Sequence record: ON286972
Length of the DNA stretch: 64,000 bases
Strand: one strand, 5' to 3'
DNA from: Escherichia phage A4
Shown here: positions 18,050-61,138 of the stretch, piece after piece
Layout of the letters: the number at the start of each line of letters is the position of its first letter
Position numbering within the stretch: the stretch's first letter is position 1
Made by a program: the position numbers and the translations under genes
Notes under the pieces: model-generated
The model's database searches: none
Seen by the model: the letters and a program-made list of their open reading frames with translations, nothing else
What the model was told of the DNA's origin: nothing

Positions 18050-20335
18050 ATGAATTTAACACAGCTATTCAAAAGCAGCGACGACCTTGCAACCTCTATG
18101 GGTCATACTTTCTTGACAATCGATCACATCAGTGCTACAGTGCTGACAGTGGATAGCATTATTGATGTATTTGGGACAATGAACGTTGACGCAACGAAAG
18201 TGCGTGATCGCTTGATTGAATATCTGAAAAATACCAATGTTCCACACGCACCACGCAGCACTATGGGGGAAGAAGTTAATCGCACTACACTAATCGTCAA
18301 TCGTGTAATGCAAGAACTATCTAAGAAATCTGTCATCGAACAACTCAAACGTGACGATTTCTCAATTGATGCATTCTTTGTACTGTTTGAATGTTTGTCA
18401 TTCCCAAACACTGCATTAGAAGCAGCATTGTTGGAAGAGGGTGTAACTCGTACTGAAGCGGCCCGTACTCTTCAGAAATATGTAGAATCTCTTGATTCTG
18501 AAATTAACCTACAAAGCATCGCTGATGAACCTACTGGGGAGAAAAAGGTGGCTCAACAACAACCTGCATCAAAACAGAAATCAATCGAAGATTACACGAC
18601 CAACCTAACACAGTTGGCTAAAGATGGTAAACTGGACCCAATGATTGGTCGTCAAAAAGAACTGGACGCACTAATTGAAACTCTGGCTCGTAAAACTAAG
18701 AAGAATGCTATTCTGACTGGTGAAGCTGGTGTTGGTAAAACTCAGATTGTTGACGGTCTAGCACAAGCCATTGTTGATGGTAATGTACCAGAACATCTAC
18801 AAAACATTGAGATTTTATCTCTTAACGTTGGTGCACTAACTGCTGGTACTAAGTATCGTGGTGAATTCGAAGAACGTATTGATAATCTTCTCAAAGAACT
18901 GAAGAAACGTGAAAATACAATCGTGTTCATTGACGAAATCCATATCATGGTAGGTGCAGGTTCTGCAAGCAACGGTTCAATGGATATGAGTAACATGTTG
19001 AAACCAGCACTATCTCGTGGTGAGATTCGTGTAATCGGTGCAACTACTTATGATGAATACCGTAAAAACATCGAGAAAGATAGTGCATTGACTCGTCGTT
19101 TCATGAAAATTGACGTAGTTGAGCCAACTATTGAAGAAACTCGTGCGATTGTAAATGGTCTGCAAGGTACATATGAGAAATTCCATAACGTAACTTTCAG
19201 TACTGAAGCAATGGATGCGATTGTGTCTTTGAGTGATAAGTTCCTGAAGAACAAACACTTCCCAGACAAAGCAATCGACCTTATGGATGCAGCAGCAGCT
19301 AAGAAACGTTCACGCGATGAATCTGATAATGTGATTTCACTACGCACAATTCAAGAAGTTGTTGCGGGAATTGCAAACTTGGATATCAACGTAGTAGCTT
19401 GTACTGAAACTGAACGTATGAAGTCACTACCAGCAGCACTTCGTAGCCGTGTATTCGGTCAAGAAGAAGCAGTGGAGAAATTGGTTGATAACGTAATGGT
19501 TGCACGTGCAGGACTTCGTGAGAAAGCAAGTGTTCAGGGTGCATTCATGTTTGTCGGTCCGTCTGGTACTGGTAAAACTGAAATCACTAAAGCACTAGCC
19601 GATGCAATGGGTTCTGAACTGATTCGCTTCGATATGTCTGAATTTTCACAAGAACATACCGTTGCAAAACTAATTGGTTCACCTCCTGGCTATGTTGGTC
19701 ACGATACTGGTAATGGTCTGCTACTCGACAAAATTGAGCAATTCCCGAATGCAGTTCTACTGCTGGACGAAATTGAAAAAGCACACCCTAAAGTACTGCT
19801 AACCTTCCTACAGGTTCTGGATGAAGGTCACCTAACTGGTTCACAGGGTAAAACTGTATACTTTAACAACGTAACAGTTATTATGACAACCAACTTGGGT
19901 GCAGCAGATGCAAATAAACGTAGTCTGGGTTTGAGTGGTGGTGAAACAGCACAGGAGAAGGCAGTGAAAGCTTTCCTACCACCTGAATTCCTAAACCGTA
20001 TCGATAGCATCGTGAAGTTTAATGAGCTATCCAGTGAAGCTATCCAGAGCGTTATTGATAAGTTCATGGCTGGTCTAAATGAGCAAATCAAAGAGCGTGG
20101 CGTGAAAGTAACACTGACTAAAGCGGCACGTGAATGGTTAGAAGCAAATGGTGTTCAGCCTGGAATGGGTGCACGTCCAATGAAACGTACAATCGAGCAG
20201 AACATCCGTGTTCCTCTGGCTAAAGAAATGCTATGCGGTTCACTGGTAAATGGTGGTAACGTAACATTTGATGTGATTAACGGAAAGTTGGGTATCAAAC
20301 CAAAACGTCAAGTTAAAACCCCATCTGTAGTGTAA
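18050..20335 (+). CDS. clpA: ClpA-like AAA+ unfoldase (Hsp100/Clp ATPase, two AAA+ modules)
   Basis: Walker A GEAGVGKTQ and GPSGTGKTE; Walker B IVFIDEIH and LLLDEIEKAH; N-domain present; no ClpB middle coiled coil; LGL tripeptide (KRSLGLSGG) at the ClpP-docking IGL-loop position; reads close to E. coli ClpA along its length. Confidence 0.9.
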   Translation: MNLTQLFKSSDDLATSMGHTFLTIDHISATVLTVDSIIDVFGTMNVDATKVRDRLIEYLKNTNVPHAPRSTMGEEVNRTTLIVNRVMQELSKKSVIEQLKRDDFSIDAFFVLFECLSFPNTALEAALLEEGVTRTEAARTLQKYVESLDSEINLQSIADEPTGEKKVAQQQPASKQKSIEDYTTNLTQLAKDGKLDPMIGRQKELDALIETLARKTKKNAILTGEAGVGKTQIVDGLAQAIVDGNVPEHLQNIEILSLNVGALTAGTKYRGEFEERIDNLLKELKKRENTIVFIDEIHIMVGAGSASNGSMDMSNMLKPALSRGEIRVIGATTYDEYRKNIEKDSALTRRFMKIDVVEPTIEETRAIVNGLQGTYEKFHNVTFSTEAMDAIVSLSDKFLKNKHFPDKAIDLMDAAAAKKRSRDESDNVISLRTIQEVVAGIANLDINVVACTETERMKSLPAALRSRVFGQEEAVEKLVDNVMVARAGLREKASVQGAFMFVGPSGTGKTEITKALADAMGSELIRFDMSEFSQEHTVAKLIGSPPGYVGHDTGNGLLLDKIEQFPNAVLLLDEIEKAHPKVLLTFLQVLDEGHLTGSQGKTVYFNNVTVIMTTNLGAADANKRSLGLSGGETAQEKAVKAFLPPEFLNRIDSIVKFNELSSEAIQSVIDKFMAGLNEQIKERGVKVTLTKAAREWLEANGVQPGMGARPMKRTIEQNIRVPLAKEMLCGSLVNGGNVTFDVINGKLGIKPKRQVKTPSVV

Positions 20336-30347: not shown

Positions 30348-30380
30348 GTATAGGACTCCATAAATTCGTTCATTCATTTG

Positions 30381-30392
30381 ATTTATTTATGC
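30381..30392 (-). promoter_or_regulatory. late-promoter-like motif before the giant gene
   Basis: Minus-strand CATAAATAAAT ~35 nt upstream of ATG 30347. Confidence 0.4.
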
Positions 30393-30395
30393 TAT

Positions 30396-30419
30396 AAAAA
30401 AGGCGACCCGAAGGCCGCC
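30396..30419 (-). terminator. terminator/attenuator between J-like gene and giant gene
   Basis: Minus-strand GGCGGCC-UUCG-GGUCGCC (one G-U) followed by UUUUUU. Confidence 0.5.
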
Positions 30420-30428
30420 ACGATTTTA

Positions 30429-33893: not shown

Positions 33894-33941
33894 TTATTAA
33901 TCCTTTAAGCCAATAAAGTACTGGGTCAGTACTGAAATTTT

Positions 33942-33957
33942 ATATAGAAATATTTAT
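33942..33957 (-). promoter_or_regulatory. late-promoter-like motif
   Basis: Minus-strand ATAAATATTTCTATAT upstream of the J-like gene. Confidence 0.45.
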
Positions 33958-33985
33958 CCAAAAGAAAAGCACTCCGAAGAGTGCT
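33957..33985 (-). terminator. rho-independent terminator after gp25 gene
   Basis: Minus-strand AGCACUC-UUCG-GAGUGCU followed by UUUUCUUUU. Confidence 0.55.
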
Positions 33986-33992
33986 TAGTAAA

Positions 33993-34388
33993 TTATAATT
34001 TAGATGTTGTGAATGTCGCCATTCTATTATTACTTCTGGCATCAAACACTATAGTTAGTTGTTCTAATTTATCAAGCATTACATACTCTAAAATTATATC
34101 CAAACGATAACCATATTCAACATTACTAACTGTTAGATTTTTTAAATTCAAACGTGGGTCTAATGAAATAATTCTACGAGCGTCAGCTTCTAAAAGATTT
34201 TTTGTATTATAACCATCAAGTTCAAAAATCAAATCCCAAGCAATGAAACCATAATCAGCATCAAATGCTCTTTCACCTTTCTTTGTATTGAAGTGGTTCA
34301 TCAAATCCTGTCTCACCAACTCAGCATCATACAGAGTTTGTGTTTTACCCACAACAGGAGTAGAGAAACCTTTAAAAACTATTGCCAT
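33993..34388 (-). CDS. gp25: baseplate wedge protein gp25 (gpW family)
   Basis: TKKGERAFDADYGFIAWDLIFE aligns with T4 gp25 TRKGSRPFDPEFGCDLSDQLFE; size (131 aa) fits. Confidence 0.8.
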   Translation of the reverse strand: MAIVFKGFSTPVVGKTQTLYDAELVRQDLMNHFNTKKGERAFDADYGFIAWDLIFELDGYNTKNLLEADARRIISLDPRLNLKNLTVSNVEYGYRLDIILEYVMLDKLEQLTIVFDARSNNRMATFTTSKL

Positions 34389-34401
34389 AGACTTTCCTCA
34401 T

Positions 34402-34890
34402 TTATACGGATTCAACAATCCTTGCCATTTTTTCAGCACGAGAAGTTGTTTGACGATACCAAGCGGAATCACGCATTTCTTTGCCAGCGGTTTTATAATC
34501 ACCACGACCCAATGCTGCCATTGCTTTCTTAAAGTTCAATACACGAGATTTACCCATTTGGAATACCATCATCCAAAGTACACGTTGTACTTGAATAGGT
34601 GCAGTCATTCCGAATTGATCGTAAATCTCTTTTGCTTCTCTGTATGCATTTAGGGAATCTTTTTGAAGTAATGCTTCAGCTTCAGCTTCCGTTAGCCCTG
34701 CACTGAAATTTTCACCTTTTAGTACTAAGTGACCATATCCAATGGTATCTAGTCCTAGGCTATCTTTATAAACTCTGAATTTACCATTCTTGAAATAACC
34801 TAATTTAGTTTGGAAAGCAATAGTACCTTCAAACTCTTTAATTTCTTTCAAATACTGTGCATCATCAGGTTTAATTTCCCATTTACTCAT
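34402..34890 (-). CDS. T4-type lysozyme (GH24), stand-alone
   Basis: EFEGT...DTIGYGHL...MVFQMG...SAWYRQT matches T4 lysozyme catalytic Glu/Asp/Thr and the conserved MVFQMG block; paralogue of the gp5 C-terminal domain; two AATAAATATT motifs upstream. Confidence 0.85.
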   Translation of the reverse strand: MSKWEIKPDDAQYLKEIKEFEGTIAFQTKLGYFKNGKFRVYKDSLGLDTIGYGHLVLKGENFSAGLTEAEAEALLQKDSLNAYREAKEIYDQFGMTAPIQVQRVLWMMVFQMGKSRVLNFKKAMAALGRGDYKTAGKEMRDSAWYRQTTSRAEKMARIVESV

Positions 34891-34903
34891 ATACTTCTCC
34901 TAT

Positions 34904-34929
34904 AATATTTATTGGATAAAATATTTATT
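34904..34929 (-). promoter_or_regulatory. tandem late-promoter-like motifs before the lysozyme gene
   Basis: Two AATAAATATT copies on the minus strand between the gp5-like stop and the lysozyme ATG. Confidence 0.4.
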
Positions 34930-37588
34930 GACATGCCTCAATTCTACGAGCCATTAACTCTGCACGACGAGTTGTTTGACGATACCAAGCTGAACTACGT
35001 ATATGAGCAGCAGCACCACGATAATCACCTTTAGCTAAACATCCAAGCATACCCTTGAATTTTTGAACTTTGTATTTGCCCATTTGGAATACCATTTGAC
35101 ATAGTACTTGTTGAGCAATAACAGGTGTTTTTAAATCCCATGCCGCATATATTGATTTGGCATCATTAATTGCTTGCGTACTGTCTCGTACTAATATTGC
35201 TTCAGCTTCTGCTTCAGTTATACCACCAGAAAAATCTTCACCTCCGACAATAAGGTGTCCATATCCAATTGTAGGGAATCCACGGCTATCAATATAACGC
35301 CAGAATTTTCCATTTCTGAAATATCCAAGTGCTGTTTGATATTGGATAGTACCTTCGTGTTCTTTAAGTTCGGATATAAATTGGGAATCACCCGGAGCAA
35401 CTTTCCATCCAACGGCAGTTTTATCAACATTACCTACATTATAATTTTGTTCAACTTTTGGAGCGGTTCCTGCATTTCGAGGCTTACGTTCTCTACGACG
35501 AGGAACATGACGAGAACCACGTTGTGAATAACCAGTTCCAATAGTTCGTATGCGAGTTGATATTACCAATTCATCACTATCAGCAGATGGTCTGACCACA
35601 TCTTTAGGGTTATTTTGTGTTGATGGTTGACCCCCAATTAATGTTTTATTCGCAGCGGCAGAACCCTGACCAGTTACAGTTGTGTAGAATAATCCAGGAT
35701 CAACTGAACCACTAAAACCATAGATATTAGATGAGCGAACTCTTATTTCAAATCGTAATATACCATTAGCAGTTCCTATCACTTGTCCTTTTTCAACAAC
35801 ATCTTTATTGAATAGGTCAGAAGTTAAACCATAGAAAACAGATTTATAACCAGATTTATGCTCAACAATAAGAGCATCACCACTGATACCAACAATCCCA
35901 CCATCTGGTGCAACCACACTTCCACGGGCTTGAATTTCCCATCCACTACTATCACGCTTGGTTCCATTCTCGGTCGTTACACCCTTACCCCAATAACCAT
36001 TCTGGCGAATAGTACCGCTACATGGCATAAGCATATGCAAACCTTCAAACGTCTGCGAATAACCAGTCATTCCTGGTTCAGCCGCCATTAAATCTTGTGT
36101 TTGAACTTCACTTGTCTCTGGGGCATAATTTACAAATTGAATTGCTTCTGTTTCTTGTTGCTCTGCAAGTGTAGGTTGAACATCATTTGCTGGTTGTGGC
36201 TCAACTGGAGATGTTGTACTACCTTGACCACCACCACTTATACCAGGATCAACCCTATCACCGTGGTTTTCTGCATCTTTCCAGTTAGCAATCATATGAA
36301 TGTGGTCATTAAGACCCACTGATGGAGTTTTGAAGTCAGGAGCCATGAATGCAGCACTACCACTATTACCTGCACTATCAACTGTTAGGTTTTGACCACC
36401 ACCACTAATGTTAACGGATGAACCACCAATAACGTTTGCAGAGGATGAACCTTTAATAGATGCAGTTGACCCAGCCGTAATATCAGTACTGCTACCACTT
36501 TGAAGACGTAATGAAGCACCAGTAACCAAACGAAGATCAGCACCAGAATTAATTACAACCTGACCATTGACCTTAGCATCCAAATTACCTACCAATTCCA
36601 GTTTGGTATTTCCACCAACACGAGTATTGAAGTCTTGCCCACTTTCAATATTATAAGAACGACCTGCAACCATGTTAATATCTTGACCTGCACGAATGTT
36701 TATGTTTTTATCACAGTGCATTTCAATATCACCATCGCCAGTGAATTTAATACGAGCCGTGCCATCACGGTTAATTAATAAAACATTACCAGTAGCTTCA
36801 GAAATAAGAAGTTGTGCACCACTACGCGTTTTAATAACAATACCTTCATTCTTACGGGAACCAACACGAGTGTCATTAACTGGGTTGTTAAATTGTGTGT
36901 CTTGGTATCCATCAGGGTCTTGATCCCATGTTGGCTTGGTCAATTCTTCTTCTGTATATCCATCATCAAGAATAAAACTATTACCACGAGGTGTACTCAT
37001 ACCATATACAGTACTGGTTGTTTGACGAGTACTGCTGCGGTTTGCAACACCTGCTTCATCATCGTATAATAAGTTTTGTTTTTTCAATCCTTCAACAGCA
37101 GGAACGTTAATATATTTGTCTTGCATGTCAGTTGTGATTGTGTTACGATCATAATCAGTTACTGGTAATGGCATATCAGTACCATTGTAATTGGTATCCG
37201 CAGTTGCCATTCCAGGAACCATTGTATTCATACGTTGGTCATAAACACATCCAATCCAGTAAGCTTGGAATGTACGTGCTTGTGCAAAAATAACAACAAC
37301 AGTACATCCCACATCTGGTGGAACGGCCCAAAAACCATAACCCTTTGGATATTGTCCATAACTATCTGCACTCGGTATTCCTGGAGTTTTGCCAGCAAAC
37401 GGAGCCATATAAGAAGCTTCAATCCATGAATCTTTAGAGTTTTTATCACTTTGTGAACCTTGTATCCATACTTTTAGCTTACCAGATTTCGTAGGATCAC
37501 GGTTATCCATAACGGTTGCTAATTGTGGATAAGATGGGTCAAAACGACCCAACTGTTCCTTTGCATACTTTTTACTTGTATCTGCCAT
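34925..37588 (-). CDS. gp5: baseplate central spike, gp5-like, with C-terminal lysozyme domain
   Basis: N-terminal OB-fold-like segment (GRFDPSYPQLATVMDNRDP...), beta-helix-like repeats (aa ~285-410), an M23/LytM-like segment with zinc ligands replaced (…GILRFEIRV, aa ~505-635) and a C-terminal GH24 lysozyme domain (aa ~725-887). Confidence 0.75.
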   Translation of the reverse strand: MADTSKKYAKEQLGRFDPSYPQLATVMDNRDPTKSGKLKVWIQGSQSDKNSKDSWIEASYMAPFAGKTPGIPSADSYGQYPKGYGFWAVPPDVGCTVVVIFAQARTFQAYWIGCVYDQRMNTMVPGMATADTNYNGTDMPLPVTDYDRNTITTDMQDKYINVPAVEGLKKQNLLYDDEAGVANRSSTRQTTSTVYGMSTPRGNSFILDDGYTEEELTKPTWDQDPDGYQDTQFNNPVNDTRVGSRKNEGIVIKTRSGAQLLISEATGNVLLINRDGTARIKFTGDGDIEMHCDKNINIRAGQDINMVAGRSYNIESGQDFNTRVGGNTKLELVGNLDAKVNGQVVINSGADLRLVTGASLRLQSGSSTDITAGSTASIKGSSSANVIGGSSVNISGGGQNLTVDSAGNSGSAAFMAPDFKTPSVGLNDHIHMIANWKDAENHGDRVDPGISGGGQGSTTSPVEPQPANDVQPTLAEQQETEAIQFVNYAPETSEVQTQDLMAAEPGMTGYSQTFEGLHMLMPCSGTIRQNGYWGKGVTTENGTKRDSSGWEIQARGSVVAPDGGIVGISGDALIVEHKSGYKSVFYGLTSDLFNKDVVEKGQVIGTANGILRFEIRVRSSNIYGFSGSVDPGLFYTTVTGQGSAAANKTLIGGQPSTQNNPKDVVRPSADSDELVISTRIRTIGTGYSQRGSRHVPRRRERKPRNAGTAPKVEQNYNVGNVDKTAVGWKVAPGDSQFISELKEHEGTIQYQTALGYFRNGKFWRYIDSRGFPTIGYGHLIVGGEDFSGGITEAEAEAILVRDSTQAINDAKSIYAAWDLKTPVIAQQVLCQMVFQMGKYKVQKFKGMLGCLAKGDYRGAAAHIRSSAWYRQTTRRAELMARRIEACQ

Positions 37589-42786: not shown

Positions 42787-44934
42787 ATGTTAAACATTAC
42801 ACGTATAACAATGAGGAATTTCTTTTCCTTTGGTAATGCACCACAAGTTATTGATTTAAATGGTGCTGACATATCTTTAGTACTCGGTCAAAACAATGAT
42901 GCTGTCATTGAAGGTGGTGATAGTTCTGGTCGTCGTAACGGTGTAGGTAAAAGTGCAATTATTCAAGGTCTTGTTTTTGGACTATTTGGAAAAAGTATTG
43001 GTAACGATATTAAAATTCCAAACTTAGTTAATAAAACAAATGCTAAAAATTGTGAAGTTACCGTTGAGTTCGAGAAAGACGGTATACAATACCTTGTTGA
43101 GCGTGGGCGTAGTCCCACATATTTCAATTTCATCACTCTAGGTCAGGACAATAAAGTTCTCGATGAATCAAGAGGTGAAAAGAAAGATACACAAGAAGAT
43201 CTAAATGAAATTCTCGGAATCTCTCAATTACTTTTTGAGCACATTGTAGTACTGAATGCTAACGTTGAACCTTTCCTTGCTCTTTCTTCACAGAAACAAC
43301 GTGATATGATTGAAGAGCTATTAGGTATTACCCAATTAACAGAGAAAGCTGAACTGTTAAAGGATATGAACAAAGAGTCAAAACGTTTAGCTGACCAAGA
43401 GAAGTTTAAAATTGAAACAGTTGCAGCAAGTAATGAACGCATTCAACGCAGCATTGAAACCTTACAGGAACAGGCTAATAAGTTTGAAATTGATAAGGCT
43501 AATAGAGTGCAAAAACTAAAAAGTGAATTGGAAGTATACAGTACTTTTGTATTTTCTGATTTATATGCTGCTGCTGAAGAGAAAGAAGAAGCACTTCTAC
43601 ACATCTCTAAACGTTTACAACTCGAACGTAGAGTTCAAGAACTTGCAGTGAAATATGATCAGTACGATAGAGAACTAGCCACTAATAAAAATATTATTCA
43701 GCATAGTATCGATAAATTAAAAACTATTGATATTGAATCTGAATTAAAAAACCATGAAGAAATGGAACTGTGGAAACAACTAGAATCTATCTTAAAAGAT
43801 AATCAGTTGCAAAAGAATTTCAAAACACAGAAACTAAATTCACTAAATCTTTCGTTGAATGCTCATATTAAATCTCTTACAGCAGAAGAAGAGAAATTAA
43901 AATCAGTTGAGGATAGTAAATGTCCACTTTGTTTATCAGAGTTGGAGCATAATGAGCATGGTAATGGTATAAAAGATAAGATTAATGATACTATTCGTCT
44001 AATCAGAGAAAATATAAGTAAGGTTGAGTTGGAAATTGCAACACTATCAGATGAAATCAATGCAATTGAGATATTTGATATGCCCCCTAAACCTGTAACT
44101 TTCTATAATACCCTTACCGAAGCCCAAATGCATGACCATAAGCTACAAGAACTTATTAAAAAGAGTGAGGAAGAACAAATTAACATCTACCGTGATGAAC
44201 TAATGTCTTCTTATGAGGCTCTTGATGCATTAGAAGTAAAGGAAGTTCCAGATGCGTTGAATAAATCAGAAGTTAAAGAGTTAGAAATGACTTTTAACTC
44301 ACTTACTCAACAACTTGAACACGAATTGAACACAACTAATACGTTTATTAGTCAGATTAATACTTTAACAACCGATTCGTTGGTTCCTATTGATTATACT
44401 GACTTCAATAACCTTGAAAAATTGGCTAATCACCAAGATTTCTTAGTTAAACTATTGCTCAATAAGGATAGTTATGTTCGTAAACGTATCATTGAACAAA
44501 ATATCTCATATTTGAACTCCAGATTGCAGTATTATATTGATATGTGTGGTTCAGAACACAATGTGGTCTTCTTGAATGACCTTAGTGTTGAGATTGAGAA
44601 GAGTGGGCAGTACTTTGACTATAAACAATTGAGTCGTGGAGAACGAACACGTGTTAATATTGCATTATCATGTGCTTTCCGCGATACTTATGAATCATTA
44701 TATCAAAGTATTAATATTCTTATCATAGATGAGATGATAGATCAGGGTCTTGATTCAAGTGGTGTTCTAAGAGTATGGTCAATCTTCCAGGATATGGCTG
44801 CTGTACGTGGTAAAAACGTATATGCAATATCTCACAGAGAAGAATTACTATCTAAAACAGAAAAAATCCTTAAAGTGGTTAAAGAAGACGGTTTCAGTAC
44901 TGTTGAATATGCTACTCTTGATGATATTTTCTAA
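42787..44934 (+). CDS. gp46: recombination endonuclease ATPase gp46 (Rad50/SbcC-like)
   Basis: Walker A GRRNGVGKSAI, zinc hook CPLC, long coiled coils, signature SRGERTRVNIAL, Walker B ILIIDEMIDQGLD; aligns with T4 gp46. Confidence 0.9.
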   Translation: MLNITRITMRNFFSFGNAPQVIDLNGADISLVLGQNNDAVIEGGDSSGRRNGVGKSAIIQGLVFGLFGKSIGNDIKIPNLVNKTNAKNCEVTVEFEKDGIQYLVERGRSPTYFNFITLGQDNKVLDESRGEKKDTQEDLNEILGISQLLFEHIVVLNANVEPFLALSSQKQRDMIEELLGITQLTEKAELLKDMNKESKRLADQEKFKIETVAASNERIQRSIETLQEQANKFEIDKANRVQKLKSELEVYSTFVFSDLYAAAEEKEEALLHISKRLQLERRVQELAVKYDQYDRELATNKNIIQHSIDKLKTIDIESELKNHEEMELWKQLESILKDNQLQKNFKTQKLNSLNLSLNAHIKSLTAEEEKLKSVEDSKCPLCLSELEHNEHGNGIKDKINDTIRLIRENISKVELEIATLSDEINAIEIFDMPPKPVTFYNTLTEAQMHDHKLQELIKKSEEEQINIYRDELMSSYEALDALEVKEVPDALNKSEVKELEMTFNSLTQQLEHELNTTNTFISQINTLTTDSLVPIDYTDFNNLEKLANHQDFLVKLLLNKDSYVRKRIIEQNISYLNSRLQYYIDMCGSEHNVVFLNDLSVEIEKSGQYFDYKQLSRGERTRVNIALSCAFRDTYESLYQSINILIIDEMIDQGLDSSGVLRVWSIFQDMAAVRGKNVYAISHREELLSKTEKILKVVKEDGFSTVEYATLDDIF

Positions 44935-45446: not shown

Positions 45447-45469
45447 AATGTGCCTTAGATCTAAGTTAG

Positions 45470-45486
45470 TTTATGAAATATTTATG
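45470..45486 (-). promoter_or_regulatory. late-promoter-like motif before the endo VII-like gene
   Basis: Minus-strand CATAAATATTTCATAAA ~25 nt upstream of ATG 45446. Confidence 0.4.
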
Positions 45487-45543
45487 AAATACATTCCTAA
45501 GAAATTTTTAAGTACTTTTTTTATAAAAAAGATTAGATATTTT

Positions 45544-45571
45544 GAGACACTTTTAAATTGCGTGCTATAAT
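45544..45571 (+). promoter_or_regulatory. sigma70-like promoter firing into the ORF-free region
   Basis: GAGACA-N16-TGcTATAAT; same spacing as the clpA and gene 55 promoters. Confidence 0.45.
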
Positions 45572-45577
45572 GTTTCA

Positions 45578-46064
45578 TGTAGTACTGACAATCCTGTTGA
45601 ATGCAGAAATGCATATAAATTAGAACCTAATCCACTCGAAAATGTAGAGGGTAGATGAGCAGTTCAACAGTGCGATGAGCAAAAGAAACCCGTTAGATGT
45701 GGGCATATTATGAACCCCTCACGGCGACACGGCTCAATAAAGAACTCCGATAAGCATACAGAGAGTTCCTCGATAGTTCCTCGATAGATGTATAAGGATC
45801 GCACCTTACCAGATTTGCTAAGGGAGTTTGATGATTCATTTCATTAAACAGCCTGAAGTTTGATTGTATAGACTTTCAGGTGAGTGTCAGGATGTTTAAG
45901 ACTGACGACCGTTGCACATGACTGCGATAGAGAGAAACAGAGCAACCCGCTTTCGTTCTTAATATTTTTACAATATAATTACGTTTAAATTTTAAGAAAT
46001 TCGCAATACAATAATACCGATGCCATCAGCGTCAAGAAACAGAGACTTAATTGTCTCTTTTTTA
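45578..46064 (+). ncRNA. candidate non-coding transcript (promoter to terminator), family unknown
   Basis: Bounded by the promoter at 45544-45571 and the hairpin/T-run at 46041-46064; contains an 8-bp stem-loop (CCTGAAGT...ACTTTCAGG), a tandem 11-bp repeat and only very short ORFs. Confidence 0.3.
46041..46064 (+). terminator. candidate terminator inside the ORF-free region
   Basis: AGAGAC-ttaatt-GTCTCT then TTTTTT. Confidence 0.5.
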
Positions 46065-46149
46065 TTATCTTCATTCCCCTGCGGGGGGATGAAATATCCT
46101 CAACAAATCCCGTCAAGTATTAAATCATTTAAAGTTCTTTATAATTATA

Positions 46150-46245
46150 TTAAAATGAATATGAGTTAACGTAGTTAACGAATATTCTTCAGCTAACGAA
46201 TGAAATGAGTTAGATGAGTTCAATATAAATCAAATGAATTCCTTC
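46150..46245. repeat. cluster of short direct repeats (iteron-like)
   Basis: GTTAACG x2, TAACGAAT x2, ATGAGTT x3 within ~90 bp, followed by an A-tract. Confidence 0.4.
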
Positions 46246-46307
46246 AAGAATAAATCTTTTAAGATCATAATTTCTTTCATCTACTTTGTAAGTAAAAATC
46301 CAAAAAA

Positions 46308-46341
46308 CAAAAACAAAAAAAAACCAGCAACAATGTGCTGG
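46308..46341 (-). terminator. rho-independent terminator
   Basis: Minus-strand CCAGCA...UGCUGG hairpin followed by a run of nine U. Confidence 0.6.
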
Positions 46342-46354
46342 CTTCTTATGAGTA

Positions 46355-46516
46355 TTAGTGCTTCTCGTTCATCTTCTTTACTTTCTTATTGTATGCCTTA
46401 ATAAGCATATCTCTGTCATTTACTGGCATATTAAGTAGAGTTGCATAATCGACATTATCTACATAAACAGCAGCATCCATAAGGGCATTTTTAATATCTG
46501 ATTTATTCAACTCCAT
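46355..46516 (-). CDS. small hypothetical protein (53 aa)
   Basis: Short ORF (MELNKSDIKNALMDAAVYVDNVDYATLL...) between the zinc-ribbon gene and a terminator; weak Shine-Dalgarno; below ORF-track size cut-off. Confidence 0.2.
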   Translation of the reverse strand: MELNKSDIKNALMDAAVYVDNVDYATLLNMPVNDRDMLIKAYNKKVKKMNEKH

Positions 46517-46533
46517 ATCATCCAGAAGTTCTT

Positions 46534-47989: not shown

Positions 47990-48024
47990 GCCCATATGGT
48001 TAATATCCATGTGGGCTTTTTTTA
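47990..48024 (+). terminator. rho-independent terminator
   Basis: 10-bp stem GCCCATATGG/CCATGTGGGC (one wobble) then TTTTTTT. Confidence 0.7.
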
Positions 48025-48037
48025 TACATTGCATTTC

Positions 48038-48053
48038 ATAAATATTCCTATAT
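48038..48053 (+). promoter_or_regulatory. late-promoter-like motif
   Basis: ATAAATATTCCTATAT ~25 nt before ATG 48077. Confidence 0.45.
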
Positions 48054-48076
48054 AAACTTAATGTAGGAATTATTAT

Positions 48077-50248
48077 ATGGCTGTAAACAACAGTGATTAC
48101 TTACTACAACAGATAGTGAATAAATCTAATGATACCGTAGATGGTCTTTCAGCTATACGTGAATTGTTAGCAGAAAGTTTAAAGAATGATAAAAAGAAAA
48201 ATAATGGTGGTGGTAACCCATCACCTGGCGATTCATCTGGACCAAGTGGTGGTGGACGCGGTTCTCGTGGTAATTCATCCTCTATGGGTAAAATGTTCAG
48301 AGCAATGTCCAGCGAAATGACAAACGTTGGTAAAACAATGATGAGTACTTCAGCGAATGTCAGTACTGTCATTAACTCAATGGGTATGAGTGCATCATCC
48401 GTAGCTGGCTCTCTTTCTATGATCCCTGGTCCTGTAGGAATGGCAGCATCAGCATTTAAAATGGTTGCTGATGTAGGGATGGCAGTATATAACGTAATGA
48501 ACGCCCAGCTTGAAATGTACAACAGAGTCAACAGTGCGGGTGTTTCTCTTGCTGAAGGTTATGGCTCTTTGCTAAAAGGTTCAGGTTCAGCGTTAATGTC
48601 TATGGATCTATTCAGTGAAGTAATATCAACTCATAGTGATGTTATTGCACAATTGGATGGTTCGTATGGAGATGGCGTTAAGGAATTTGGTAAATTGTTA
48701 GGTGTAGTTCAAAATGCCCAAGATAAACTTGGCCTATATGGTATGTCACAAAAAACTTTATCAGATTTAGCAGCACGTAACATCAAAATTCAAAAACAAT
48801 TTGGTGGTGCAGAACTAGTAAGGAATATAAACCAAGCACAAAGTACCCAAGAGTTAATTAAAACTATGTCTACTTTTAGTAAGACAATGGGTATGTCAAT
48901 TGATGAATTACTTAAAAAGACACAATCACTTGATAAATCATTTGATGCAAGAATACTAAAAACTACACTAAACAACTGGGTGGGACTATCAGAAGAAACC
49001 GCAACATTAACCACTAAAGCACTTACCGAAGCGGCAGGTGGTATGGGGGATATGGGTACTGATTTCCTAAGATTGATTAGCCACAGAATATCAATTGGTG
49101 GTGTTCCTGATGATTTATTATCTCCAATGATTAGCGAATTCGCTGACCTTGGTGAGAACATGGTTAAGTCTGGTGTAACCGATGCAAAAGCTATACGTGA
49201 AGCACAATATCAGTGGGTGAAGAAAAACAGAAAACGCGTTGAAGCAGATATGGAAGATATGCAACGAAGTCAAAACTTCACCGCTGCCGCATTTGCTAAG
49301 CAAATGTTAGATATGGAAGCTGCAATTAATGCTGACAAAAATCGACCAGCAGATAAAATCGCAGAATTTACTGATAGATTGAACAGATGGGTCAGTACTG
49401 AATTTGTTGCTCCATTCAATAAAATGTATGCTGATGTTCAAAATAATGTTGTTGATTATTTGACAGCAATTGCAGATCGTACCGATAGTGCATGGGGATT
49501 TATTTGGGAATTGGCTAAAGATGGATTTGGGTTAGTTCCAATATTCAAGGATGCGGTTTCTTATGTTGACCGTATTGGTAACGAATTTGTATTATGGCTT
49601 GAGGGATTGGGTTCTGACATATTTGGGGACACATATACTCAAGTTTCAAAAGCATTCGATGACTTCATGAAGAATCTCATGGATTTACCTGGAAAGTTAT
49701 GGGATAAAGTAAAAGGATGGTTTGGTTCAGATGATAAATCTGAAAAACAAGAAGAACCTAAAAAGAAAATAGAAGAGAAAGCTACATCTTTCTGGGATTC
49801 TATTGGTAATTCAGTAGACGATTTCACAAAATTTGTAGAAGAAAAAACACTTGACTTCCAAAAATGGAAATCTTCTAAATTATATACACCACCTAGACCA
49901 TTTAACGTAGATAATGCATATCGAGTCTTGGGCTATGAACCACCTAAAAACGTCCAGACTACAGTAATGCCAAATACACCACCTATGATGGAATTAACTC
50001 GTAAACATTATGATAAATCCGCATGGAAACCTGGTGAAGCACCATTCCCACCAGAACCAGATCGTGATATAAAATCTCTGGTAACGCCTCAAAACGGAAC
50101 TATAAATAATGACATGAGTTCAGAAGAGATCAAAGAAATTTTTAAACGTCTAGCAGAAATGAGTGAACAATCACTCGCAGCAACAAATCAGACAAATAAT
50201 TACTTAAGAACAATTTCTGAAAATACACAAGGTGAACGCAATAGTTAA
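48077..50248 (+). CDS. hypothetical virion protein (Gly/Ser/Met-rich N-terminus)
   Basis: 723-aa ORF immediately upstream of portal; late promoter motif upstream. Confidence 0.4.
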   Translation: MAVNNSDYLLQQIVNKSNDTVDGLSAIRELLAESLKNDKKKNNGGGNPSPGDSSGPSGGGRGSRGNSSSMGKMFRAMSSEMTNVGKTMMSTSANVSTVINSMGMSASSVAGSLSMIPGPVGMAASAFKMVADVGMAVYNVMNAQLEMYNRVNSAGVSLAEGYGSLLKGSGSALMSMDLFSEVISTHSDVIAQLDGSYGDGVKEFGKLLGVVQNAQDKLGLYGMSQKTLSDLAARNIKIQKQFGGAELVRNINQAQSTQELIKTMSTFSKTMGMSIDELLKKTQSLDKSFDARILKTTLNNWVGLSEETATLTTKALTEAAGGMGDMGTDFLRLISHRISIGGVPDDLLSPMISEFADLGENMVKSGVTDAKAIREAQYQWVKKNRKRVEADMEDMQRSQNFTAAAFAKQMLDMEAAINADKNRPADKIAEFTDRLNRWVSTEFVAPFNKMYADVQNNVVDYLTAIADRTDSAWGFIWELAKDGFGLVPIFKDAVSYVDRIGNEFVLWLEGLGSDIFGDTYTQVSKAFDDFMKNLMDLPGKLWDKVKGWFGSDDKSEKQEEPKKKIEEKATSFWDSIGNSVDDFTKFVEEKTLDFQKWKSSKLYTPPRPFNVDNAYRVLGYEPPKNVQTTVMPNTPPMMELTRKHYDKSAWKPGEAPFPPEPDRDIKSLVTPQNGTINNDMSSEEIKEIFKRLAEMSEQSLAATNQTNNYLRTISENTQGERNS

Positions 50249-53918: not shown

Positions 53919-53958
53919 TTGAAGTACAGATATTTCAGTACTTAAAGGAGAGAACAGA

Positions 53959-55077
53959 ATGTCTAAATTAGAAAAGCTTCTAAAAGAATCATCTCTTTCT
54001 GATGAAGCAAAACAGCTAATTCAGGAAGCATGGAATGAAGAAAAGAACACACTAGCCGCTGAAATGCGTGAAGAAATGAAAGGCCGTTATAAACAAGACC
54101 TAGCTGAACTAACAGAAGGTCTTAACACTATGGTTACTCAAGTTATCGCTGAAGAAATGGGTGCAGTATATGACGAGAAAAAACGTCTCGTTGAAGACCG
54201 CGTTACCCTCCGTAAAACTCTTGGTAACTTCTCTGAATTCGCTAATTCAGTACTAGCTGAAGAAGTTAAACAAATGCGTAACGAACGTAAACTAGTTCAA
54301 GAAAGCCTCGGTAAATTCGTTAATTTCTCTAACGGTATCCTAGCTGAAGAACTAAAAGAATTCCACAGCGAAAAACGTCAACTAGTAGAAGCTCGTGTAA
54401 AACTACTTGCTGAAGGTTCTCGTCAAATTGCAGAAGCACGTAATAACTTTATCAAACGTACCTCTGAAAGTGCTGCTAAATATATTGCAGAAACCACTCA
54501 GAAAAATCTTTACGCTTTGAAACAAGATCTTGCTGAAGCTAAACAAAATATGTTCGGTCGTAAAATCTTTGAAGCATTTGCTCAAGAATTTAATACCAAA
54601 CAATTTAATGAGAATTCACTACTTCGTTCTTTGACTGAATCAATCAAATCTAAAGAAGATGAGATTGCTCAAGTTAAACAAGAACTAAATGAATCTGTTA
54701 ACGCAGTTAAAGAAGTTCAATCAAAACTACGTATCATGGAAGATACACAGGCACGCAATGCGATTATGTCTGAATTGGTTAAGCCTTTGACTAGTCAACA
54801 AAAACAAATTATGGAATCCCTTCTAGCTGCTTCTCCAACAGAAAAGCTTAAAGAAGATTTCAGCAAGTACCATAAGTCTGTACTTAACGGTACTAAAGTA
54901 AATGAATCTGCTACCACTCGTCAAGCAGTTCAACCTTCAGCGAAGAAAACAACCCTAGCAGAAGGTAAAGTAATCACTGGCAACCGTCAGGCTATTGTTG
55001 AAAGCGAAGAAATGACCGCTGACGATATGGCATTCCTAAAAGAACTCGACGTTCTTTCTGGTATCAATAAAAAATAA
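53959..55077 (+). CDS. gp22: prohead scaffold protein (at the gp22 position)
   Basis: 372-aa charged protein with coiled-coil character, between protease and capsid genes; late promoter motif upstream. Confidence 0.6.
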   Translation: MSKLEKLLKESSLSDEAKQLIQEAWNEEKNTLAAEMREEMKGRYKQDLAELTEGLNTMVTQVIAEEMGAVYDEKKRLVEDRVTLRKTLGNFSEFANSVLAEEVKQMRNERKLVQESLGKFVNFSNGILAEELKEFHSEKRQLVEARVKLLAEGSRQIAEARNNFIKRTSESAAKYIAETTQKNLYALKQDLAEAKQNMFGRKIFEAFAQEFNTKQFNENSLLRSLTESIKSKEDEIAQVKQELNESVNAVKEVQSKLRIMEDTQARNAIMSELVKPLTSQQKQIMESLLAASPTEKLKEDFSKYHKSVLNGTKVNESATTRQAVQPSAKKTTLAEGKVITGNRQAIVESEEMTADDMAFLKELDVLSGINKK

Positions 55078-55169: not shown

Positions 55170-56345
55170 ATGTCACAACTACTAAATGAATCCAAATGGG
55201 TAGCAGTTAAAGAGAAACTAGTTGAAGGTCTTCAAGGTACTCGTAAATCCGTAATGGAAACCGTTCTTGATAACCATCGTAAAGTTATGCTACAAGAATC
55301 TGCAACCGCTGGTGCAACTTCTGCTGGTAACATCGCTACTCTAAACAAAGTGATTCTACCAATTATGCGTCGTGTAATGCCAACCGTTATCGCTAACGAA
55401 ATCATCGGTGTTCAACCAATGACTGGCCCAGTTGGTCAAATCCACACTCTACGTGTTCAATACGCTGACAACGCACCAGGTGTTGTAGCTGGCGAAGAAA
55501 TGCTATCTCCATTCAAGATTGCTAAATCTTACACTGGTGAGCTAAACTCTGACAACAGCAACCCACAAGCTGCTCCTACTAGCCAACTAGAAGGTACTAT
55601 GGGTCGTCGCGTTAACATCCGTATCCTACGTGAAACTGTTGAAGCGAAATCTCGTCGTCTATCTGCACGTTGGACTGTTGAATCTGCACAAGATGCACAA
55701 TCTCAACATGGTATCGACGTTGAAGCTGAACTAATGGCTGCTATCGCACAAGAAGTTACCGTTGAAATCGACCAAGAACTACTAAGCCGTCTACGTGCTC
55801 TACCAGGTGCTGCTGCTGTAACTTATGACCAATCTAAAGTAACTGGCGTTGCTACTTTCGTTGGTGATGAGCACGCTGCTCTAGCTACCCTAATCAACCG
55901 TCAAGCGAACGAAGTTGCTCGTCGTACCAAACGTGGTGCTGCGAACTGGGCTGTTGTTTCCCCAACCGCTCTAACTATTCTACAATCTGCAACTACTTCT
56001 AGCTTTGCACGTACTACTGAAGGTACTTTTGAAGCACCAACTAACGTTAAATTCGTTGGTACTCTAAACAGCACCATGCGTATCTTTGTTGATACCTACG
56101 CAAGTGACGTAGAAGATATTCTAATTGGTTATAAAGGTAATGCAGAAACTGATGCTGGTGTATTCTATTGCCCATACATCCCACTAATGGCATCTGGTAC
56201 TGTTATGGACCCTAACACTGGAGAACTCGTTACAACTTTCTTAACCAGATACGGGTATGTTCAGTTGACCGATAGCACCAGTTCACTAGGTAACGCTGCG
56301 GACTACTACAGCAAAATCGCTATCAAAAACGTTACTTTCATGTAA
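55170..56345 (+). CDS. gp23: major capsid protein gp23-like
   Basis: IANEIIGVQPMTGPVGQ, VEAKSRRLSARWTVESAQDAQSQHGIDVEAEL and GYKGNAETDAGVFYCPYIPL align with T4 gp23; strong terminator follows. 391 aa versus 521 in T4. Confidence 0.9.
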   Translation: MSQLLNESKWVAVKEKLVEGLQGTRKSVMETVLDNHRKVMLQESATAGATSAGNIATLNKVILPIMRRVMPTVIANEIIGVQPMTGPVGQIHTLRVQYADNAPGVVAGEEMLSPFKIAKSYTGELNSDNSNPQAAPTSQLEGTMGRRVNIRILRETVEAKSRRLSARWTVESAQDAQSQHGIDVEAELMAAIAQEVTVEIDQELLSRLRALPGAAAVTYDQSKVTGVATFVGDEHAALATLINRQANEVARRTKRGAANWAVVSPTALTILQSATTSSFARTTEGTFEAPTNVKFVGTLNSTMRIFVDTYASDVEDILIGYKGNAETDAGVFYCPYIPLMASGTVMDPNTGELVTTFLTRYGYVQLTDSTSSLGNAADYYSKIAIKNVTFM

Positions 56346-56474: not shown

Positions 56475-57581
56475 ATGCCAAAAGTAAGTATCGACAAAGA
56501 AAAATTCATTGAAGAGATGAACAACAAGTATGGAGCATATGGTGAATTTGATTTCAGCACTTTAGTATTCAAAGCCAGTAAGACAACAGTTAAATGTAAT
56601 AAATGCGGAAAAGAAAATACTAAACCTGCACTACGTCACATTTCATGTACATGTTCTTCATGTTATTCAAACATGTCACAGCGTTCGAACAACGAAAAAT
56701 TTATCAGCACGGTAGAAACTAAATTTGGAAAAGATAAATTCAAATTTGATAAACTAAATTACATTAACGCTATAACAAAAGTAACAATACTCTGTACAGA
56801 CGAAGAACATAACGATTACTTTGAAATTACACCAAACAAATTTCTTACTGGTAAGGGATGTCCTATATGTAATAAAAATGAAGCATACAGTACTGAAGAA
56901 TTCGTAGAAAAAGTAAAAGAAAATTATGGTGATTCATTAGATTTAACTAACACAGTATATGTAAATCAAAAAACTAAAGTAACTGTGTATTGTAAAGCGG
57001 GTAACCATGAATGGACAGTTGATCCGAAAACTTTACTTGTTGGTAAGACTGGTTGTGGTACATGCTCCGGTAAAGGTGGTCGCAGTACTGAACGTTTCAT
57101 TGAACTGGTATCACCTATCCATAACCATAAGTATGATTATAGTTTGGTTGAATATACTATAAGCGAGAATTATGTTGATATTGTATGTCCAACTCATGGT
57201 GTTTTCTCCCAACAACCAAAAGCACATATGGCTGGTAAAGGATGCCCATCATGTGGTGAATATGGATATCAGCCATCAAAACCTGGATATTTCTATGTTC
57301 AAAAACTAACTAATAAAGATAAGACAGTGTACAAGTATGGAATCACTGGCGATATGAAACGCCGTGTAAATGAGCAAAGTCGTCATTCTGATTTTGAACA
57401 CACTGTACTGGTAGAACGTTACTTTGAAGATGGTCATAAACCCTTAGTACTGGAAAAGTTTTTGAAACAATACATTGATAGTGGTGTAGTAACTACTGAA
57501 GAGTTGCCATCAGGATTCACAGAAACTTTTGATGCTAAGTATCTTGAAACAGTACTGGAGATTGTAAATACATTTGAATAA
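56475..57581 (+). CDS. zinc-ribbon repeat protein with C-terminal GIY-YIG-superfamily-like domain (putative free-standing endonuclease)
   Basis: Four ~60-aa modules each ending in a Cys pair (CNKCGKEN / GKGCPICN / GCGTCSG / GKGCPSCG), then GYFYVQKL...YKYGITGDMKRRVNEQSRH; motif reading only. Confidence 0.45.
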   Translation: MPKVSIDKEKFIEEMNNKYGAYGEFDFSTLVFKASKTTVKCNKCGKENTKPALRHISCTCSSCYSNMSQRSNNEKFISTVETKFGKDKFKFDKLNYINAITKVTILCTDEEHNDYFEITPNKFLTGKGCPICNKNEAYSTEEFVEKVKENYGDSLDLTNTVYVNQKTKVTVYCKAGNHEWTVDPKTLLVGKTGCGTCSGKGGRSTERFIELVSPIHNHKYDYSLVEYTISENYVDIVCPTHGVFSQQPKAHMAGKGCPSCGEYGYQPSKPGYFYVQKLTNKDKTVYKYGITGDMKRRVNEQSRHSDFEHTVLVERYFEDGHKPLVLEKFLKQYIDSGVVTTEELPSGFTETFDAKYLETVLEIVNTFE

Positions 57582-57605
57582 ACACTAAGCAGGGAAGCTT
57601 TCACT

Positions 57606-57956
57606 ATGTTAACTGTATACATTTTTAAAAAAGAAGAGTACTTAAAGAGTCAGTACTCAAAAATTGAGATCAATGTTCCTTATGGAACGTTGGTGGGTTA
57701 TGATGAGGCTACGGAGACGTTGTATTACAATGATGATCGTCTGGATTACAGTACTGATCATTTTATAGAAGATATATTGAGTACTGAATCAGAAGACATG
57801 TTGTATGAAGAATATATTGACAAATACAAAGAACGCATGTCGAAGTTACATGCTGATGCTCCAGTACTGAACACTCCTAAAACCCCATCCGAGTTTGATC
57901 CTCAAAATCCATTTCAACGCCTGATAGATGCGGGTGTAAACTTCAGAATTAGTTAA
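57606..57956 (+). CDS. hypothetical protein
   Basis: 116-aa ORF between the two GIY-YIG-like genes. Confidence 0.3.
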   Translation: MLTVYIFKKEEYLKSQYSKIEINVPYGTLVGYDEATETLYYNDDRLDYSTDHFIEDILSTESEDMLYEEYIDKYKERMSKLHADAPVLNTPKTPSEFDPQNPFQRLIDAGVNFRIS

Positions 57957-57986: not shown

Positions 57987-58295
57987 ATGTCACAAATATG
58001 TTATGTAATCACTAATAGTGCATGGCCTGAATATGTAAAGATAGGCTTCACTACAAAATCAGAGATGAAAGAGCGTTTAGGTGTTTATCAGACAGCTTCA
58101 CCATTCAGGGATTTTGAGGTATACCATCAGGTTATGTTTGACGATGCACGAACAGCAGAAAAGGAAGTGCATAAGAGATTAAAGCAAATGAATGCAACAA
58201 GGCAACCTAACTCTGAATGGTTCAAGATGCCTAAAAAGTTAGCTGCAAATATTATTGATTCCGTATTGGATGATATGGAAAATGATTTACTATAG
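57987..58295 (+). CDS. T5orf172 / GIY-YIG-like domain protein
   Basis: CYVITNSAWPEYVKIGFTTKSEMKERL...VH..L...EWF fits the T5orf172-type GIY-YIG pattern; GGAG Shine-Dalgarno. Confidence 0.55.
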   Translation: MSQICYVITNSAWPEYVKIGFTTKSEMKERLGVYQTASPFRDFEVYHQVMFDDARTAEKEVHKRLKQMNATRQPNSEWFKMPKKLAANIIDSVLDDMENDLL

Positions 58296-61110: not shown

Positions 61111-61138
61111 GGGACACATTGAGAAGTACTGATATAAT
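61111..61138 (+). promoter_or_regulatory. sigma70-like promoter upstream of the polymerase block
   Basis: GGGACA-N16-TGaTATAAT. Confidence 0.45.

Follow-up and report, generated by a model that had tools for sequence, protein, structure and literature searches.

The palindrome AGTACT is enriched across a clade of jumbo phages and may be the recognition site of a DNA-binding protein

Why should one six-base palindrome recur throughout the genes of a large coliphage far more often than its composition predicts? The question is raised by a stretch of 64,000 nucleotides from Escherichia phage A4 (sequence record ON286972), hereafter the window. An earlier reading of the bare sequence (the original prediction) had flagged an over-representation of AGTACT at positions 57080-57870, attributed it to selection at the DNA level rather than to codon bias, and named a modification enzyme, a nicking enzyme or a DNA-binding protein as possible causes. 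The window has a G+C content of 36.2% and is placed by megablast among the structural genes of a jumbo myovirus of ~350 kb that belongs to the 121Q/PBECO4/RaK2 group. Its identity to Asteriusvirus genomes is 78-91%, and the matches weaken stepwise through RaK2, GAP32, Munch, fHe-Yen9-04, Serratia BF, CBB, XbC2 and Kaldavass. With moderate confidence we favour the reading that (C)AGTACT(G) is the recognition site of a putative dimeric DNA-binding protein, which would act both at early promoters and genome-wide.

An exact count gives 112 copies of AGTACT in the window, or 1.75 per kb, with 104 inside open reading frames (ORFs) and eight in intergenic DNA. The earlier hand counts proved exact (eight in 57061-57900 and two each in 48001-49000 and 19001-20000), and the accompanying estimate of ~0.3 per kb agrees with dinucleotide-preserving shuffles of the window, which yield 19.1 copies (standard deviation 4.5, maximum 31). 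Markov models of orders 1, 2, 3 and 4 predict 18.9, 28.9, 42.5 and 90.5 copies per strand, respectively. By both order-1 and order-3 z-scores, no other of the 4096 hexamers is as over-represented as AGTACT.

Gene-aware null models were built on 44 ORFs, by which 95.7% of the window is coding. Shuffling synonymous codons within genes, with the protein and its codon usage kept, gives 31.0 +/- 5.2 sites (maximum 52 in 1000 runs) against the 104 observed in coding DNA, and shuffling the order of codons gives 26.6 +/- 5.1. A synonymous shuffle barred from creating 27 words that are absent from the window (26 palindromic hexamers and GCGC) still gives only 32.0 +/- 4.7, so that the excess is not a by-product of avoiding those words. 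Codon, amino-acid or dinucleotide bias is likewise ruled out as the cause by the synonymous, codon-order and dinucleotide shuffles. The enrichment persists, in the window and in its relatives, once codon and dinucleotide composition are modelled; it has a DNA-level cause and is not due to codon usage, which strongly supports the earlier proposal.

The excess had also been described as independent of reading frame. Each frame is indeed enriched: 2.6-fold for AGT-ACT, encoding Ser-Thr (58 sites against 22.3 expected), 3.8-fold for xAG-TAC-Txx (10 against 2.6) and 6-fold for xxA-GTA-CTx (36 against 6.0). The distribution over the frames, 58/10/36, is nevertheless uneven. The proteins of the window offer 266 synonymous opportunities for AGTACT, 104 of which (39%) are used, and the rare Leu codon CTG occurs in half of the frame-2 sites. 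What did not survive is the notion of a local feature. Spacing of AGTACT in the window is Poisson/exponential (Kolmogorov-Smirnov p = 0.98), and when sites are placed at random with the density of the whole window, ~5% of the placements contain a cluster of at least eight sites in 840 bp. A hot spot at 57.1-57.9 kb is therefore ruled out, and the over-representation flagged there is genome- and clade-wide.

AGTACT is the top-ranking hexamer in all 12 clade sequences that were ranked (the window, BF17, 121Q, RaK2, GAP32, Munch, fHe-Yen9-04, Serratia BF, CBB, XbC2, Kaldavass and Hallingskeid), with enrichments of 5.5-10.7x. In homologous 50-kb pieces from ten relatives, which represent at least four genera, AGTACT always ranks first, with 1.6-2.4 copies per kb and 5.5-9x expectation; the deeply diverged Hallingskeid reaches 3.4 per kb and 10.7x. 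The complete genome of 121Q (341 kb) contains 890 AGTACT, 192 CAGTACTG and no GCGC. Outside the clade, the counts are 4 against 6.4 expected in Atu_ph07, 3 against 14.4 in PA5oct, 0 against 9.2 in XacN1, 8 against 9.6 in T4 and 0 against 15.4 in coliphage phi92 (positions 1-50000); outgroups with similar G+C show no excess. A 50-kb sample of E. coli K-12 has three copies, about one per 17 kb, so the clade, with one site per 0.3-0.6 kb, is 30-40x denser than this sample. AGTACT enrichment is a trait of RaK2/121Q/GAP32/BF-like jumbo phages, present in all 13 that were sampled, and it has a sharp boundary. Our full-text literature searches found no description of it. AGTACT is also the recognition sequence of ScaI/Eco255I-type restriction enzymes. 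Phages normally avoid restriction targets, as phi92, XacN1 and PA5oct do here, but this clade enriches the site 6-20-fold. Its total avoidance by phi92 suggests that restriction pressure of the ScaI/Eco255I type on coliphages is real.

Single positions turn over while the density is kept. In BF17, 47 of 85 window sites are conserved, against 26.5 expected from frame-matched hexamers, and in other genera about 30% are conserved against 17% of control hexamers, with ~70% of positions differing. Among conserved Ser-Thr dipeptides, those written AGT-ACT in the window are written in the same way by relatives in 64-92% of cases, and those written otherwise in the window are AGT-ACT in relatives in 33-73%; from codon frequencies, 16% would be expected. 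As a side observation, AGT accounts for 33% of the Ser codons of the window, partly driven by AGT-ACT itself, and tRNA gene 131 of 121Q (positions 25464-25555 of the piece L012) is a tRNA-Ser whose annotated anticodon, ACT (ACU), would recognise AGU. The tRNA may have co-adapted with this very heavily used codon.

Some other words of these genomes are unusual too. GCGC is absent from the window, where about 32-40 copies are expected, and from every clade member sampled; its frequency is normal in Atu_ph07, PA5oct, T4 and phi92. In the window, 26 of the 64 palindromic hexamers are missing, including GGTACC, CGTACG, CTGCAG, CAGCTG and CCATGG, so that an unusually thorough purge of restriction sites stands beside a single hugely enriched palindrome. 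In the unrelated jumbo phage XacN1 (150000-199999), which has no AGTACT, the palindrome GATATC occurs 38 times against 9.9 expected and is among the top hexamers; a single favoured palindrome per genome may extend more widely among jumbo phages. The hexamers CTGGTG, GGTGGT and CACCAG, which belong to the Chi site of E. coli, are also among the most over-represented words; 121Q has 29 copies of the complete Chi octamer (18 on the plus and 11 on the minus strand), and the window has two. This excess may simply reflect GGT/GCT/CTG codon pairs.

The shape of the motif bears on what might read it. The core extends to the 8-bp palindrome CAGTACTG, found 25 times in the window against about one expected. 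In coding orientation, C precedes 44 of the 104 sites and G follows 51 of them; flanks that are symmetric relative to transcription are expected of a dimer reading duplex DNA and not of a signal in mRNA. Among sequences of the form CAGxyCTG in 200 kb of 121Q, CAGTACTG is counted 218 times and any other centre at most 7 times, which makes the central TA obligatory. G at position -1 is avoided in every genus (3-10%), and C at this position accounts for 27-54%. Positions beyond +/-1 carry at most 0.1 bit genome-wide, which rules out a dispersed repeat element.

The density of sites varies along the chromosome and peaks at its ends. In 121Q, genes for replication and structure carry 1-2.5 AGTACT per kb. 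The density rises to 5-8 per kb around 130-155 kb and to 10 per kb across 2 kb of non-coding DNA. The record of the relative fEgEco12 begins at experimentally confirmed termini and has direct terminal repeats of 20,993 bp (PMC13070987). Its left end maps into the 2-kb non-coding AGTACT array of 121Q, and the physical left end lies within an array of TTCAGTACTGAA-like sites. The terminal repeat of fEgEco12 holds 6.57 AGTACT per kb (4.55 in coding and 10.9 in non-coding DNA) versus 2.28 over the next 29 kb, and that of CBB, a member of another genus, holds 6.37 per kb over 22.5 kb.

Within the terminal repeat of fEgEco12, the intergenic sites are fixed parts of sigma70-type early promoters. In a first position (box 1), AGTACT lies against the -35 hexamer or overlaps it (AGTACTTGCAA, AGTACTaTTGACA); in a second (box 2), it ends 1-2 nt 5' of the -10 hexamer (AGTACTgTATAAT). 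Both boxes are often found in one promoter. Measured from TAnAAT, the start of AGTACT lies at -27 in 20 cases and at -7 in 13 cases in fEgEco12; in CBB it lies at -27 to -29 in 18 cases and at -7 in 16. The distances between pairs of sites peak at 20-22 bp, equal to two helical turns, and this peak is seen only in terminal repeats. A palindrome at a fixed position relative to -35 and -10 in two genera, as an operator should show, is thus found in the terminal repeats of the relatives and not in the window. The boxes lie upstream of transcription starts and would therefore act as DNA, which together with the symmetric flanks in coding orientation rules out an RNA-level signal. The two-box class is not included in the published promoter lists of CBB, and early promoters with two AGTACT boxes are a promoter class unrecognised before. 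We also observed in CBB, at 329.4-330.6 kb (24400-25640 of the piece L026), a 1.2-kb stretch without ORFs that contains several sigma70-like promoters and precedes the gene CBB_511, of the HTH_37 family, and a gene for a sigma70-family sigma factor.

The excess of AGTACT beyond chance, together with its fixed positions in the earliest promoters, suggests that a putative protein probably reads this word along the phage chromosome, and the phage clade itself most likely encodes it. Bound to paired boxes, which are 20-22 bp apart and on one face of the helix, the protein would control immediate-early transcription. Its most likely mode of action would be to shut off early promoters by occluding them; alternatively, it could be a cofactor that sits in register with RNA polymerase. 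The solitary sites scattered through genes, ~85% of all, would be landing sites for the same protein along the 350-kb chromosome, where it may mark or organise the phage DNA and so set it apart from that of the host. Each single site would be under weak selection, and the maintained quantity would be the density.

Such a role would be functionally comparable to that of SPO1 TF1 or phi29 p6. These abundant proteins bind along the phage genome, prefer early promoters in the terminal redundancy or genome ends, and repress early transcription. The distribution of AGTACT, with the terminal repeat densest, boxes in early promoters and sites genome-wide, matches this type, although TF1 and p6 recognise modified DNA or bendability, unlike a reader of a strict hexamer. 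Among the causes named in the original prediction, a DNA-binding protein best fits the palindromic flanks, the arrays at the ends and the fixed promoter boxes.

Several observations weigh against this reading. No cognate DNA-binding protein was found among the candidates examined, which are a minority of about 600 genes. 121Q lacks a homologue of the HTH_37 regulator CBB_511; 121Q gene 518, annotated as 'DNA-binding', encodes a ferritin-like DUF5856 protein; and the eight terminal-repeat proteins common to fEgEco12 and CBB contain no DNA-binding domain recognisable with Pfam or PHROGs. CBB_476 and 121Q genes 266, 294 and 567 were also rejected as readers, having no recognisable DNA-binding domain. 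No HU-like or p6-like protein is annotated in 121Q, in which no systematic fold search was made. The window shows no peak in the offset of AGTACT from promoter hexamers, and its sites belong to the solitary, scattered class. The few exceptions are intergenic look-alikes: site 61125, the deeply conserved 53937, and 33917/33928, a pair that forms a hairpin. A protein coating the whole genome would not predict the 5- and 7-kb blocks without AGTACT that adjoin the terminal repeat of fEgEco12. These blocks (21000-26000 and 30000-37000) consist of overlapping ORFs of ~70 amino acids (aa), and at the average density of the genome each should hold more than 10 sites. Duplication of promoter cassettes within each genome could account for part of the fixed register. 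It is a further weakness that the Nanopore negatives for AGTACT, described below, come from analyses not aimed at AGTACT.

Constraint on single sites is also hard to see at short range. Between 121Q and PBECO4, which are 98.6% identical, 78 sites are shared, four are lost and three are gained. The substitution rate inside sites equals the median of control hexamers, so that per-site constraint is undetectable at 1.4% divergence and purifying selection on single sites gives no signal in this comparison. Taken with the turnover of positions across genera, this control-like substitution argues that each copy is weakly constrained and that density is maintained, a behaviour also known from codon bias, uptake sequences and cyanobacterial HIP1.

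The alternative that survives best, although we consider it unlikely, is that AGTACT is a Chi-like or end-protection signal, read by a translocating nuclease or helicase or by a recombination machine of the phage or its host. Frequent sites, densest near DNA ends, would then save the phage DNA from degradation or direct its recombination, while the host DNA, poor in sites, is broken down. This would fit the peak density of 6.4-6.6 per kb, versus about 2 elsewhere, that marks the terminal repeats and the physical end, the 30-40x higher number of sites per kb than in the E. coli sample, and the occurrence of AGTACT genome-wide and in all frames, as with Chi; a palindrome would also be usable in either direction of travel. 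It does not explain the fixed register with -35 and -10 in two genera or the pairing at 20-22 bp, and no enzyme of the RecBCD/AddAB type is among the annotations of 121Q. Known Chi sites are asymmetric and orientation-biased, whereas AGTACT and its flanks are palindromic, and E. coli RecBCD reads GCTGGTGG, not AGTACT.

More doubtful is a second possibility, that AGTACT is a cleavage or nicking site of a phage endonuclease, for example of the T5orf172/GIY-YIG type, acting transiently in vivo. Transient nicks would load clamps for late transcription or start recombination-dependent replication. Palindromes are typical of nuclease sites, AGTACT is frequent and genome-wide, and a small T5orf172 gene near the capsid gene (window 57987-58295) is conserved in the clade. 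The fixed promoter positions are not explained in this way, and T5orf172/GIY-YIG nucleases have no known specificity. Native Nanopore reads show no nick signature in the clade members Kaldavass and Hallingskeid, whereas coverage drops of the nick type are present in the same study for one unrelated phage (PMC11780129); ~900 nicks in each genome could hardly have gone unnoticed, which speaks against the nicking enzyme of the original prediction. The DNA of fEgEco12 is, moreover, cut in the predicted restriction patterns (PMC13070987).

We regard it as quite improbable that AGTACT is the target of a DNA-modifying enzyme of the phage, whose protective marks would become denser through enrichment of the site. 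The clade does encode several methyltransferases, a DNMT3-like C5 enzyme and others of the Dam-family and N6_N4 types, and ~900 unprotected ScaI/Eco255I-type sites would be a risk in view of their avoidance by other coliphages (phi92, 0 versus 15). In comparisons of native with amplified DNA, however, the modified motifs of Kaldavass and Hallingskeid were GATC, CCWGG and TGCAT only, AGTACT not having been specifically tested (PMC11780129). RaK2 carries cytosine methylation at CpG (PMC3622015), which the DNMT3-like enzyme fits and which AGTACT does not contain. Phage phi92 has a 51%-identical C5-methyltransferase yet no AGTACT at all, and methylated cytosines tend to deplete motifs rather than enrich them. 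With CpG (C5), GATC, CCWGG and TGCAT as the reported motifs and a C5 homologue in AGTACT-free phi92, the clade methyltransferases were rejected as readers of AGTACT, and the evidence, which is indirect and comes from the literature, goes against a modification site as the cause.

A non-adaptive mutational or repair drive, in which very-short-patch (VSP)-like repair or biased gene conversion turns near-matches into AGTACT, likewise deserves little credence. It would be consistent with the missing per-site constraint and the rough balance of gains and losses at 1.4% divergence, and with conserved Ser-Thr positions converging on AGTACT whatever the ancestral codon pair. Of the 18 one-mismatch neighbours, however, 17 occur at 1.2-1.9x expectation and only AGGACT/AGTCCT is low (0.38), unlike the depletion of CTAG that accompanies VSP repair in E. 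coli. Mild enrichment of the neighbours instead of depletion argues against such repair, which we rejected. A drive would also not set a fixed promoter register, build arrays at the ends or leave blocks of 5-7 kb empty.

Blocking host division is a common phage strategy, and AGTACT forms the centre of GTGAGTACTCAC, the sequence bound by SlmA of E. coli. The idea that the phage titrates or activates SlmA and so blocks cell division nonetheless receives very little weight from us. The 6-bp core is identical, but SlmA requires G and T as the first two bases and a purine as the third and tolerates changes of the centre (PMC3020112), whereas the phage motif is indifferent to G and T in its first two bases, favours C and avoids G as the third, and has an obligatory TA centre. 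These requirements are the reverse of those of the phage motif, and the flanks are thus incompatible with a SlmA site; GAGTACTC occurs not once in the window and three times in 121Q. Last, a compositional artefact (codon usage, amino acids, dinucleotides or palindrome avoidance) can be given next to no weight: AGT, ACT and GTA are frequent codons, and the order-4 model absorbs most of the excess (90.5 against 112) because AGTAC and GTACT are themselves enriched, but the gene-aware shuffles stay at about 27-32 against 104, non-coding DNA is even richer in sites, and the outgroups of similar G+C lack the excess.

Comparison with known systems places AGTACT among genome-wide words. HIP1 (GCGATCGC) of cyanobacteria is similarly a short palindrome, present once per 0.3-1 kb, many-fold enriched and found in all frames against codon preference; both words are clade-wide with turnover of positions, and by three HIP1-type criteria AGTACT behaves alike. 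HIP1 is a feature of cellular genomes linked to a cognate methyltransferase, and its function is not experimentally settled. Unlike HIP1, AGTACT is viral, it is not among the methylated motifs in published long-read data, and it is also a fixed element of early promoters. Chi (GCTGGTGG) and the uptake sequences USS and DUS resemble AGTACT as genome-wide, frame-independent 'self' words of which each copy is weakly selected; protein machines use them to separate the cell's own DNA from foreign DNA. They are asymmetric and orientation-biased and are read by RecBCD, ComP and others; AGTACT differs as a palindrome with a promoter-linked subclass. The sequences bound by SlmA and Noc are palindromes scattered over the chromosome, and the SlmA site combines an AGTACT centre with a dimeric helix-turn-helix reader, but E. 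coli has about 50 SlmA sites per 4.6 Mb compared with about 900 AGTACT per 0.35 Mb in the phage. The nick-associated motifs of T5, tf and Rembedalsseter are clade-conserved, short and mostly intragenic (PMC11780129). These motifs are asymmetric, lie on one strand, number about 10-15 per genome and have direct nick evidence, in contrast to the palindromic AGTACT with its ~900 copies.

Within the window, the extended sites CAGTACTG start at 693, 6617, 9364, 14555, 17078, 19198, 20643, 23572, 28568, 32547, 33927, 36484, 37009, 44895, 47947, 48361, 49393, 56888, 57083, 57550, 57749, 57862, 58374, 61510 and 62112. The cluster that had been flagged (57084..57868) comprises sites at 57084, 57446, 57551, 57637, 57652, 57750, 57780 and 57863. 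It spans the 3' part of an endonuclease-like ORF (56475-57581, plus strand) and a 116-aa ORF (57606-57956, plus strand), the latter with five sites or 14 per kb. Conservation is highest for the intragenic site 19792..19797 and the site 44896-44901, both found in 10 of 10 aligned relatives, followed by sites 13113, 37028 and 51239, each conserved in 9 of 10.

Some of the intergenic sites are suggestive in their placement. Between two minus-strand genes, sites 33917 and 33928 form an inverted repeat, AGTACTGggtCAGTACT, with a 7-bp stem (33917..33933), and the published terminators of CBB include a similar AGTACTGG...CCAGTACT stem. The site 53937..53942, 22 nt 5' of the start codon of ORF 53959-55077, is kept in 9 of 10 relatives. 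At 61125..61138 on the plus strand, AGTACTGATATAAT consists of AGTACT, one base and a -10-like ATATAAT; the arrangement is like that of box 2 in the terminal-repeat early promoters of the relatives, and we claim resemblance only. A further site (45581..45586) lies ~10 nt 3' of a TATAAT in an ORF-poor gap (45447-46533), which has a second site at 45511. The major capsid protein gene (55170..56345, plus strand) is a negative example. Among the genes of the window it is the one under the strongest constraint and with the highest expression; it has no AGTACT, and neither does its orthologue in 121Q.

The surroundings of these sites offer some observations of their own. The endonuclease-like ORF 56475-57581 lies directly 3' of the capsid gene and contains several CxxC zinc-ribbon repeats with weak DUF4379/DUF723 matches and a weak C-terminal match to T5orf172. 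The T5orf172 gene at 57987-58295 encodes a 102-aa T5orf172/MUG113 protein and is syntenic across the clade. The 1.1-kb gap 45447-46533 separates an endonuclease VII gene from a baseplate-hub gene and contains a TATAAT-type promoter near 45566, ~450 nt of G+C-richer DNA free of ORFs, and a terminator-like hairpin (46037-46066). Unannotated gaps of similar size occur at the same place in 121Q, GAP32, Serratia BF, CBB and XbC2, and in fHe-Yen9-04 the place is filled by an N6_N4 methyltransferase gene. Scans of the window, this gap included, gave no tRNA or Rfam match; the gap possibly encodes a clade-specific non-coding RNA.

Phages are known for avoiding palindromes, and here a palindrome-avoiding phage pushes one of them to 6-20x expectation, at about 900 copies per genome. 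The signature is strong and clean, and it points to a putative DNA-reading protein that would be central to widespread jumbo phages, several of which are phage-therapy candidates. The density of AGTACT offers an easy means of recognising the clade by sequence in metagenomes, and the phages are predicted to be extremely sensitive to ScaI/Eco255I-type systems, which bears on their host range. We tentatively extend the DNA-binding-protein reading to the possibility that AGTACT is a sequence tag, whose 900-1200 copies would let one protein both gate the early promoters through their paired boxes and mark or organise the chromosome as 'self'. If true, such a tag would let functions such as the takeover of transcription, protection from a nuclease that degrades host DNA, or condensation and packaging act on phage DNA only, and it would be a functional substitute for the hydroxymethylcytosine of T4, despite hundreds of unprotected ScaI-type sites. 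How an unmodified giant phage genome tells its own DNA from that of its host would thereby become a testable question.

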